Program-made: the position numbers and the translations under genes
Notes under the pieces: generated by a model
Database searches by the model: none
Told to the model about the DNA's origin: nothing
What the model saw: only the letters and a program-made list of their open reading frames with translations
Virus record (IMG/VR): IMGVR_UViG_3300037882_000522
Span: 1-24,036 of that record
Strand: one strand, 5' to 3'
DNA: 24,036 nucleotides
Origin: a virus
Taxonomy: Duplodnaviria > Caudoviricetes
In this document: piece by piece, positions 503-23,906 of the stretch
Numbering within the stretch: the first letter of the stretch is position 1
Layout of the letters: every line of letters starts with the position of its first letter

Positions 503-912
503 TGAATCCATTAGCTATTGTCGAAATTGGCGCGAAATTAATAGACAAATTGATCCCAGACCCACAAGCAAAAGCGGCCGCAAAGCTTGAGCTGCTGAAA
601 ATGCAGAGCGAAGGAAGCTTAAAGGAGGTTGAGCTGTCTCTAAGTGCGATAATCAGCGACTCAAAAAGCGCAGACCCGTGGACTAGCAGGGCTCGCCCAA
701 CTTTTCTTTACGTCGTTTATATTTTGATTTTGTGGTCGCTGCCAATGGGGGCCATGTTTGTGTTCAGCCCTGACGCAGCCGAACGGTTTACTAATGGCTT
801 TGGGTTGTGGCTTAGCTCGATCCCTGAGCCTGTTCTAACGCTGTTTGGCACGGTAATGCTGGGGTATATTGCTGGTAGGTCATTTGATAAAATTAAGGGG
901 GTGGCTAAATAG
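502..912 (+). CDS. Holin, 3-TM GTA-type (Holin of 3TMs for gene-transfer release-like)
   Basis: LIDKLIPDP..K..AKLEL N-terminus, W.SRARP.FLY motif, hydrophobic helices and basic C-terminus GY..GRSFDKIKG match this holin family as I recall it. Confidence 0.88.
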   Translation: MNPLAIVEIGAKLIDKLIPDPQAKAAAKLELLKMQSEGSLKEVELSLSAIISDSKSADPWTSRARPTFLYVVYILILWSLPMGAMFVFSPDAAERFTNGFGLWLSSIPEPVLTLFGTVMLGYIAGRSFDKIKGVAK

Positions 913-931
913 CCAGTAGTCGGCGCATGCC
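906..931 (+). repeat. Left copy of ~26-bp imperfect direct repeat (TAAATAGCCAGTAGTCGGCGCATGCC); contains the holin stop codon
   Basis: Matches 1268-1294 with a 12-bp identical core TAAATAGCCAGT, then 3 substitutions and a 1-nt indel. Confidence 0.8.
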
Positions 932-966
932 GGCGAGTGTCGTTGAGGCCTCAATCCTATCGCAGT

Positions 967-995
967 TTGCGGAACCGGCATAGAGCTGGTATAAT
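967..995 (+). promoter_or_regulatory. Sigma70-type promoter with extended -10
   Basis: TTGCGG (967-972), 17-nt spacer, TATAAT (990-995) preceded by TG at 987-988. Predicted start ~1001-1002. No ORF of 60 aa or more follows on this strand within the gap. Confidence 0.8.
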
Positions 996-1000
996 TGAGT

Positions 1001-1167
1001 TGGGGTAAGCGGCTCCCCCCTAATGAATTCGCCTGAAATGGCAAAGCGAGCGTGGGTTTCGGTTGGGCGCCCCATAGCGTGTTAAGTCACGAGGATGCAT
1101 AAATGCAAGTGGCTCGGAGATAGACGGAAGGCCGAGCAAACCGATGACAGCCGGAAAGACGGCACCA
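1001..1167 (+). ncRNA. Putative structured non-coding RNA (~165 nt), family not recognised
   Basis: Lies directly downstream of the promoter. Stems: GGGG/CCCC (1002-1018), TTCGC/GCGAG (1028-1050), and TCGGTT/AACCGA (1059-1064/1139-1144) enclosing CGTG/CACG, TGCA/TGCA and GCTCGG/CCGAGC. Terminal GCCG-GAAAGA-CGGC hairpin followed by ACCA (1164-1167). The 3' end is inferred. Confidence 0.65.
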
Positions 1168-1267
1168 TTCAATCAACTATCGGATAAGCCGCGGCAATTA
1201 ATGACATCACAGCTCAACTAATGTGTCGCATGCCGGCAAGCCAATTGATAAAGCCAAAAAGGCTGTA

Positions 1268-1294
1268 TAAATAGCCAGTGGTCAGTGCTATGCC
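1268..1294 (+). repeat. Right copy of ~26-bp imperfect direct repeat (TAAATAGCCAGTGGTCAGTGCTATGCC); contains the endolysin stop codon
   Basis: Matches 906-931; the copies are 362 bp apart. Confidence 0.8.
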
Positions 1295-1761
1295 TCTTCC
1301 CCAATAAACTTTTCAGCCATGCTTATATAATGCTCAACAGTGCCGGAACCTAGCTCGCTGTTGTAGTATTTTTTCCACATAGCAGCACGCTCAGCTCTCG
1401 TCATAGGTATTGCGGGCATCAAATAAACCTTTAGACGGCACCATATTGCCCCTACAAGAGGTGAGTATTCTAGGTCGCTAAACGCCACCCTGTTTATGTC
1501 GATATTGAACTCTGAAATCAAAGGCTTGACGAATCGCTGTGATCTGATTTTTGTATCAACAAACCCAACGCTATCAAATTGGAAAACACCCTTTCCTTGT
1601 TCGAAATGCCTGTCTCGCACGCTGCCTAAGCCTGTTTCGGCAGCCGCTATTTCTAGTAAAAATTTAGATGCAATAGAAACGTTTTTATTGTTGATAATTT
1701 CGCACGCACGATGAATGTGATTGTTTAATTCTTGCTCTGAGCTTAGCCCGTAAAAAATCAT
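1288..1761 (-). CDS. Putative endolysin, lysozyme-like/transglycosylase fold
   Basis: Helix ending in a catalytic-type Glu (EIAAAETGLG), G.GVFQ motif, A..CRL..Y..P.IP and WKKYYNS..G.GT...Y motifs. Adjacent to the holin. SD-like AGGGTG upstream of the ATG. Confidence 0.7.
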   Translation of the reverse strand: MIFYGLSSEQELNNHIHRACEIINNKNVSIASKFLLEIAAAETGLGSVRDRHFEQGKGVFQFDSVGFVDTKIRSQRFVKPLISEFNIDINRVAFSDLEYSPLVGAIWCRLKVYLMPAIPMTRAERAAMWKKYYNSELGSGTVEHYISMAEKFIGEEA

Positions 1762-1782: not shown

Positions 1783-1801
1783 TAGCCGCCCTCGGCGGCT
1801 A
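1783..1801. terminator. GC-rich hairpin, probable leaky intrinsic terminator after the tailspike gene
   Basis: Perfect 8-bp inverted repeat TAGCCGCC-ctc-GGCGGCTA. Weak U-tail on the minus strand (TGTT); GTATTTTTG follows on the plus strand. Confidence 0.55.
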
Positions 1802-23428: not shown

Positions 23429-23471
23429 AGCCAAAAATTCACAAAACCCCGCAATATGCGCCAGTTTGTCG

Positions 23472-23879
23472 CTTTTCTAACTTTTCTAACTTTTCTAACC
23501 TGCCTTTAGAACCAAGTTAGAAAAAAGTTGCCTAGTGCCACGTGGCTTAGCGGGGAGTTTTCTTATTTTCTTATTTTTATTATATATATAAAGATATAAA
23601 GATATATATATAAGAAAGAAAGGGGGGGGGTAGGTAAGTAAGAACTAAAGGGGGTGCGTCAGAAAAGTTAGAAAAGTTAGAAAATAAGAAAACTCCACGC
23701 TAACCCTAGTGCCACGCGGGTTTCGTTTTCTAACATGAAGTTAGAAAAAAGTTAGAAGTGAGAAAGAGCAAAAAGGCTTTTCTAACTTTTCTAACTTTTC
23801 TCACATGCAAGTTAGAAAAAAGTTTCTTAGTGCCACTAGGCTTAGCGGGGAGTTTTCTAACTTTTCTAACTTTTCTAAC
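23472..23879. repeat. Iteron array with AT-rich core; putative replication origin
   Basis: More than a dozen exact or near copies of TTTTCTAAC/GTTAGAAAA in both orientations, including tandem triplets at 23472-23499, 23777-23803 and 23853-23879. ~85-bp direct repeat (23471-23563 vs 23776-23858) and an AT core at 23558-23620. Lies between divergent transcription units. Confidence 0.8.
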
Positions 23880-23906
23880 TTATTTTGAAAATAGCAAAAT
23901 AAGAGC

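Follow-up and report, generated by a model that had tools for sequence, protein, structure and literature searches.

A 362-base unit without a protein gene lies between the holin gene and a likely lysozyme-like endolysin gene of a tailed phage, and it is present in some alleles of this junction and missing from another. At about an even balance of probability, we read this population-variable unit as an old ~59-base duplication of the gene junction that was filled with a promoter and a structured RNA, and that was lost again at a 12-base identical core. The cassette is a moron-like, RNA-only, repeat-bounded indel and not a demonstrated mobile element or slot. A sequence-only reading of this DNA had proposed a protein-free, RNA-only moron; the protein-free, present/absent unit with an RNA motif and a predicted promoter stands.

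The window (the whole stretch of 24,036 nucleotides that was analysed) is a piece of a tailed phage in which terminase, portal and major capsid proteins are recognised, and the public runs that contain its sequence are for the most part freshwater metagenomes. The holin gene and a gene for a 157-aa protein are arranged tail-to-tail on either side of the cassette (Table 1). The 157-aa protein falls in phrog_3108, a family of unknown function, and has no Pfam match and no PDB sequence match. A Foldseek search with its predicted model (pTM 0.73) gave a GH23 chitinase as top match (probability 0.89–0.96 and TM ~0.53, but E 0.3), among weak GH23 and lytic transglycosylase matches (E 0.3–0.9), and residue E42, near the end of predicted helix 25–46, is invariant across nine sequences. 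The gene is likely a lysozyme-like endolysin, judging by the model; the label 'endolysin' that had been given to it is plausible, but leans on a Foldseek E of 0.3 and a family of unknown function. The region around the cassette is a mosaic, with borders near 320, 610, 915, 1776, 1817 and 1855; at the last of these, the sister phage L121 changes to another gene, with a 471-aa frame where the window has an 899-aa tail-spike-like gene. Far from the cassette, at 23471–23880, a stretch without genes holds clusters of a 9-base repeat on both strands and is a likely replication origin.

Table 1. Features of the cassette and its surroundings (positions in the window)
Feature	Position	Strand	Basis and remarks
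Holin, 136 aa	502..912	+	PF11351, E 9e-21; phrog_3427 holin; final 14 codons inside left repeat copy
Long imperfect repeat, left copy	870..931	+	Alignment and shuffles; working holin end, spacer, decayed lysozyme-like gene end
Identical 12-base core, left	906..917	+	Longest identical run of the repeat
362-base unit missing from empty allele	906..1267	.	905->1268 joint in X6; crossover anywhere in the 12-base core
Inner repeat, left copy	924..937	+	13/14 against 1227-1240; straddles end of left long copy
Perfect 12-base palindrome	943..954	.	Read from sequence; just before -35 box; candidate operator
Predicted sigma-70 promoter	967..995	+	TTGCGG, 17 bases, TATAAT with TG extension; only TGnTATAAT of the window
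RNA motif, conserved core	1050..1165	+	5' module, variable middle hairpins, 3' hairpin; 14-sequence alignment A3 and two further members
5' strand of predicted long-range pairing	1059..1064	+	Likely pseudoknot with 1139-1144; 95% of cells paired
UGACA-stem-GGAAAGAC-stem hairpin	1145..1164	+	4/5 pairs covary in A3
A/C-rich leader with 6-codon frame (1201-1221)	1168..1221	+	Sequence; likely stump of the gene once led
Inner repeat, right copy	1227..1240	+	13/14 against 924-937; straddles start of right long copy
Long repeat, right copy	1231..1294	+	Alignment and shuffles; decayed holin end, spacer, working lysozyme-like stop
Identical 12-base core, right	1268..1279	+	Identical to 906..917
157-aa protein, likely lysozyme-fold endolysin	1288..1761	-	phrog_3108, model pTM 0.73, Foldseek
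Terminator-like site, first after cassette promoter	1783..1801	+	Beyond lysozyme-like gene start

The cassette borders are formed by direct repeats. The repeat first noticed by eye (906–931 and 1268–1294) is borne out, with 23 of 27 columns identical, one gap and none of 5000 shuffles scoring as high, and so are the properties ascribed to it. The left copy holds the holin's stop codon (910–912) and the right copy that of the 157-aa gene (1288–1290, minus strand), and deletion of 906–1267 keeps both reading frames whole and 13 bases apart. The longest frames lying wholly within 913–1287 (30 aa on the plus strand, 50 aa on the minus strand) are too short for a recombinase, so the unit encodes neither this nor a transposase; no recombinase was found among the 13 window proteins scanned, the window being a partial phage genome. 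A third copy of the 16-base repeat head is missing from the window at up to three mismatches.

The repeat is also longer than originally stated. It extends over ~62 bases (870–931 against 1231–1294) that have diverged by ~30%, and the homology continues into the 60 bases left of the core, whose anchored score of 26.0 was matched by none of 400 shuffles and by none of 400 60-mers drawn at random from the window. Taken alone, the stretch to the right of the core has little significance (15 of 400 shuffles reach its score), and in a lenient 180-base local alignment one of 783 unrelated genome windows beat the repeat (65.5 vs 63.5). Read in the holin frame, the right copy gives AGKPIDKAKKAV against the holin's AGRSFDKIKGVAK, and by this comparison it contains a decayed holin end. 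Opposite holin positions 873 and 876, the right copy has C, as in the diverged holins of runs X6 and X9, and at a third variable holin site (882) it agrees with the window. In each copy the half that is no longer needed has decayed and the half under selection has been kept. Nested within this arrangement is the inner repeat, whose copies are 303 bases apart and were equalled in 2 of 300 shuffles. Its identities across the edges of the long copies are 4/4, 4/4 and 5/6, falling to 2/6 and 1/8 beyond them, and its position astride both edges is what would be expected of the joint of a head-to-tail 59-base duplication. Traces of a middle unit beyond the inner repeat were not significant in a shuffle test. 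Another allele (X1, X3) contains ten letters of the repeat core a further time, behind window position 1817 and just past the terminator-like site of Table 1, at another module border.

Eight of the 22 listed runs (X1–X6, X8 and X9) were compared with the window, all as contigs and not as raw reads; X1 or X2 may be the same sample as the window itself. The empty site with one repeat copy that had been predicted is present in X6, where a 348-base contig (depth 7.7) runs from 781 to 905 and then from 1268 to 1490 with 0 other letters. The joint skips exactly 362 bases, lies in the 12 identical bases and has sides of 125 and 223 bases, and within X6 positions 916–1255 are without cover although both flanks are covered. 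With a clean sequence over the full contig, a short side of 125 bases, this depth and an uncovered cassette between covered flanks, it is very improbable that amplification or assembly produced the joint and that the cassette is fixed, as might be suspected of one contig from one run, given that joints of low likeness (<95) can stem from repeats. Cassette sequence was found in the other seven of the eight runs, of which X1 and X3 bridge it whole, X2 spans 898–1566, and X4, X5, X8 and X9 hold pieces; the sister phage (96.7% over 1–1855) has the cassette letter for letter. A filled allele in X3, seen in one contig (contig 19, depth 14.5), lacks 14 bases at 851–864, which would frameshift the holin near its C-terminus.

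In X1, X4, X6 and X9 there is a third allele, whose holin is diverged and whose sequence departs from the window at 912–915 into letters that complete a terminator-like hairpin, and other contigs join the window sequence at 1776. From these two sets of joints, with no bridging contig among those listed, we infer that the cassette and the lysozyme-like gene were replaced together in four of the eight runs. The loop and arm of the third-allele hairpin share the first 7–10 letters of the repeat core, and this allele is the deeper one in X1 and X4. An allele with the bare 59-base tandem duplication, recognisable by a 303-base skip, was not seen in the eight runs compared. The junction had also been suggested to be an exchangeable slot, a proposal that finds no backing here: neither the eight runs nor the scans of viral and genome sequences nor the surroundings of 12 RNA relatives revealed other cargo or a second site, and in the same runs and scans the whole cassette was found only at the holin/lysozyme-like junction.

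The divergence of the repeat copies bears on how the cassette came and went. Since the copies differ at ~30% of their length of ~62 bases, yet the flanks of the empty and filled alleles are identical, the recent event used only the 12-base core, and the idea of a 26-base duplication made by insertion fails. On the same grounds, and with the core alone involved, loss fits better than gain. Short-homology deletion is reported to be a significant source of small indels (PMC2884548), and a crossover in the longest identical run, here the 12 bases, is what such deletion leads one to expect. The X6 empty allele, moreover, is unlike the template of the right copy, because it has the window's T at both 873 and 876 where the right copy has C.

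From the sequences, duplication, filling, decay and finally collapse in the lineage of X6 would be the simplest order of events. In the first step, the letters TGCC, common to the holin's last codons and the last codon of the lysozyme-like gene, would have led to a head-to-tail duplication of the junction, and the new joint of this duplication would read like the 14-base inner repeat. Subsequently, a payload of ~290 bases, made up of promoter, RNA motif, leader and gene stump and derived from a different phage locus, would have entered at the joint, leaving joint sequence on both sides (362 − 303 = 59). An origin of this payload elsewhere is consistent with the 15 relatives of the RNA, which sit in other gene neighbourhoods. 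The unneeded half of each copy would then have worn away (the decay itself is observed), and the one-copy allele, which is observed as well, would have arisen by crossing in the longest identical run, through slippage or a phage annealing protein and with no dedicated recombinase. Counting against this history, the significance of the inner repeat is only ~1 in 100, and the empty allele comes from one contig of one run.

The direction of the recent event may have been the opposite, as uptake of a circle from a diverged donor would give the same junctions. In such a recent gain, a 362-base circle with a diverged, attP-like junction copy would have recombined at the 12-base core, making X6 ancestral and the site a reusable slot. 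A crossover in a shared identical core, as found here over 12 bases, is what an attP × attB exchange requires; homology-driven deletion predicts the same. The half-repeats on a circle would form one continuous look-alike of the target, the identical empty and filled flanks and the identity of all filled copies are as after one recent event and a sweep, and the PeSL cassettes of T4-type phages are a known case of circles made between short repeats (PMC2839356). A gain nevertheless requires a donor, of which none was seen, with the cassette found only in these flanks, no other cargo and no recombinase in the unit, whereas deletion takes one common event and no donor; we consider such a gain rather unlikely. 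A one-step insertion with a long duplication (26 or ~62 bases), followed by decay and by re-deletion in X6, would be one step simpler than the two of duplication and filling, and each copy has indeed kept its selected half. The presence of the inner 13/14 repeat at both edges would then be a coincidence, however, and the homology on the left side of the core (0/400) contradicts the 26-base version; we regard this one-step route as quite unlikely. Still less probable is a combined reading, in which a circle with a worn target copy shuttles via the core by general recombination of the phage, and its pseudoknotted RNA drives transcription antisense to the endolysin gene, so that gain or loss of this one RNA would switch the timing of lysis in a phage population.

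Returning to duplication and filling, the payload itself looks like the head of a lost gene, since the RNA motif precedes a leader with a gene stump, and since a contig of X3 joins a promoter look-alike directly to the leader. This contig (contig 20; 151 bases, side 24, depth 2.9) has a 45-base look-alike of 951–995 joined to 1168, a weak joint; it is without the 172-base RNA block and could represent an inner empty site in another phage. Upstream of the RNA, the extended −10 element (987–995) of the predicted promoter is the only TGnTATAAT in the window, although 1.0 would be expected somewhere by chance, and this is a prediction from sequence only. The −35 box is weak (3/6 match), and a general promoter scan therefore passed over 967–995. 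Downstream, four relatives of the RNA (L544, L560, L570 and L590) have a start codon at a distance similar to that of the window's 6-codon frame. No terminator-like site was found in 600–1600, and none on the plus strand before 1783. Because the first plus-strand terminator-like site lies beyond the lysozyme-like gene, a transcript from the cassette promoter would be antisense to that gene.

The ~116-base RNA is one of a family: 15 relatives were found, spread over other phage contigs and bacterial assemblies. A 20-base pattern taken from 1052–1071 matched seven viral stretches, and the six that are not the sister phage all have the GGAAAGAC hairpin 51–79 bases downstream, a feature that the pattern does not ask for; the single genome match of this pattern is without the hairpin. 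A looser pattern gave 43 matches, 33 of them distinct, of which 13 have the full module and 20 were excluded. The window, 12 looser-pattern matches and L544 make up the alignment A3 (14 sequences), the invariance of which is partly imposed by the search patterns. A scan that fixed only the 3' end gave 28 genome matches, comprising 2 full members, 5 short forms and 21 chance-like matches. The full members are L608 and L611 (94.5 and 71.6 bits), and in the short forms, judged by eye, the upstream hairpin is shorter but its loop has identical letters. Four short versions of the motif in bacterial assemblies (L596, L604, L612 and L616) begin a few bases after a tRNA-like sequence.

Within A3, the 3' hairpin shows covariation at four of its five pairs, and the predicted 5' helix of the motif never varies. 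The predicted long-range pairing of 1059–1064 with 1139–1144 is formed in 95% of cells; one sequence has a two-sided change, two sequences have two broken pairs, and a helix of 4–8 pairs ends just before 1139 in all 14 sequences, a count that has no control set. No Rfam 15 model matched at its gathering threshold in the window, 20 hairpin loci or 12 family loci, apart from neighbouring tRNAs. The family is absent from Rfam; the alignments of PMC10690425 may hold this RNA. None of 12 relatives is flanked by bounding repeats of the kind seen at the cassette, so the RNA itself appears to travel by ordinary phage mosaicism.

The 3' hairpin is far more widespread than the full motif. Its exact form occurs in ~360 viral stretches and a looser form in ~1200, chance matches included, and 67 of 112 hairpin contexts are fully Watson-Crick at the three free pairs. 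Another 57 genome stretches hold the hairpin, and their titles span Bacteroidota, Proteobacteria, Clostridia, Actinobacteria, Spirochaetes and one cyanobacterium. In a set of 207 hairpins picked without reference to the 5' module, the bases immediately preceding the hairpin find a U + 5-base partner in 23 cases; permutation gave 7.4 (maximum 18), and a slid control gave 8. A plain 6-base partner was found for 21 against 6.6 on permutation, but for 14 in the slid control. Given the excess in the first of these comparisons, the long-range pairing is real in a minority of hairpins (about a tenth), with its sequence, as far as these alignments tell, changing freely. Of 202 hairpin loci, 32 hold a tRNA, in all 32 cases on the same strand, and in 15 of them the tRNA lies only 3–9 bases downstream. 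One viral locus (L037:100–1005) has five copies of the hairpin at a spacing of 180–280 bases.

What the RNA does can be approached from its surroundings. Some full members of the family separate genes of an operon, some precede a tRNA, and others have a promoter-like site on one side and a terminator on the other. We tentatively favour a cis-acting role, in which the RNA, its expression here being predicted, would be a part of its transcript that aids polymerase read-on or protects what follows, because of the strict co-orientation with and tight spacing to tRNAs and because members are found ahead of tRNAs and genes. In the cassette, which would have lost the gene that the RNA once led, transcription would continue antisense across the lysozyme-like gene as far as 1783–1801, damping that gene before lysis. 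Against a special antisense role, read-through from the holin would run antisense in the empty allele too, so that such RNA could have sources other than the cassette.

Two members, L564 and L574, speak against a leader role, as their layout of promoter-like site, RNA and terminator better suits a free RNA. A free, trans-acting small RNA is possible, if on the unlikely side; it might, for instance, be a decoy to which a host RNA-binding protein or a defence nuclease binds. Such an RNA would agree with the predicted promoter of the cassette with no real gene behind it, and with a loop kept across hosts of many phyla. Two 23S loci also contain the sequence GGAAAGAC (window 1154–1160), a single time each and in corresponding positions (L620:3562–3569, L622:1395–1402), a stretch that we take to be domain V, around A2058; an 8-base match to 23S is expected 0.14–0.18 times per locus by chance, however, and is not significant. 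No terminator ends the RNA here, and the co-orientation with and spacing to tRNAs point to cis. The spacing of 3–9 bases to 15 of the 32 tRNAs could also suggest that the motif is self-cleaving, or is a signal for processing, and thereby releases the 5' end of the downstream RNA, as could the invariant, unpaired-looking bases and the likely pseudoknot. This reading is unlikely: no Rfam ribozyme model matches, ~9/10 of the hairpins are without the long-range pairing, and, as judged by eye, the motif does not seem to have the core structures of HDV-like, pistol or hammerhead ribozymes.

Whichever role applies, the filled and empty alleles are a natural with-and-without pair for testing the function of the RNA, and the proposed steps of duplication, filling and collapse can still be read from the cassette borders. 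That the unit is easily deleted, yet was kept while its repeats diverged by ~30%, suggests that it is likely useful to the phage. The family lies outside Rfam, and hundreds of phage contigs, whose hosts span many phyla, carry its 3' hairpin; the 116-base RNA alone, or the allele pair, makes the function of this widespread motif testable, for now in heterologous systems, as the phage is uncultured.

Phage morons are extra units between conserved genes and are usually thought of as protein genes. The cassette resembles them in lying between two conserved genes, being missing in a close relative and having its own predicted promoter; it differs in having no protein gene or terminator of its own, a structured RNA as cargo and nested imperfect repeats as bounds. 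A MITE-like non-autonomous transposon was considered and rejected: the copies are ~62 bases long and ~30% diverged beside identical flanks instead of an identical short target duplication, the 25 longest of 78 inverted pairs include no terminal inverted repeats, and no copies were found at other sites in the runs and scans covered. The put RNAs of HK022 are small phage RNA structures behind a promoter that act on their own transcript. Like these and the lambdoid nut/boxB elements (PMC2724277), the motif is a small conserved RNA behind a phage promoter with a purine-rich hairpin loop, its cis role being proposed here. Unlike them, compared by description and not by sequence, it has a UGACA bulge, a GAAAGA loop, long-range pairing and hosts of many phyla. 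With the PeSLs of T4-type phages, the cassette shares short repeats that mediate gain and loss of a small module and that could release a small circle. PeSLs, however, are promoter-terminator repeats, many per genome, that flank ORFs (PMC2839356), whereas the cassette repeat has two copies in 24 kb, consists of gene ends around an RNA and leaves the promoter outside the repeat. Closest to the loss that we propose is short-homology deletion, in which a few hundred bases are likewise present or absent through a crossover in a repeat core of <30 bases (PMC2884548); what sets the cassette apart is that its repeat derives from the ends of two genes and encloses a second, nested repeat.
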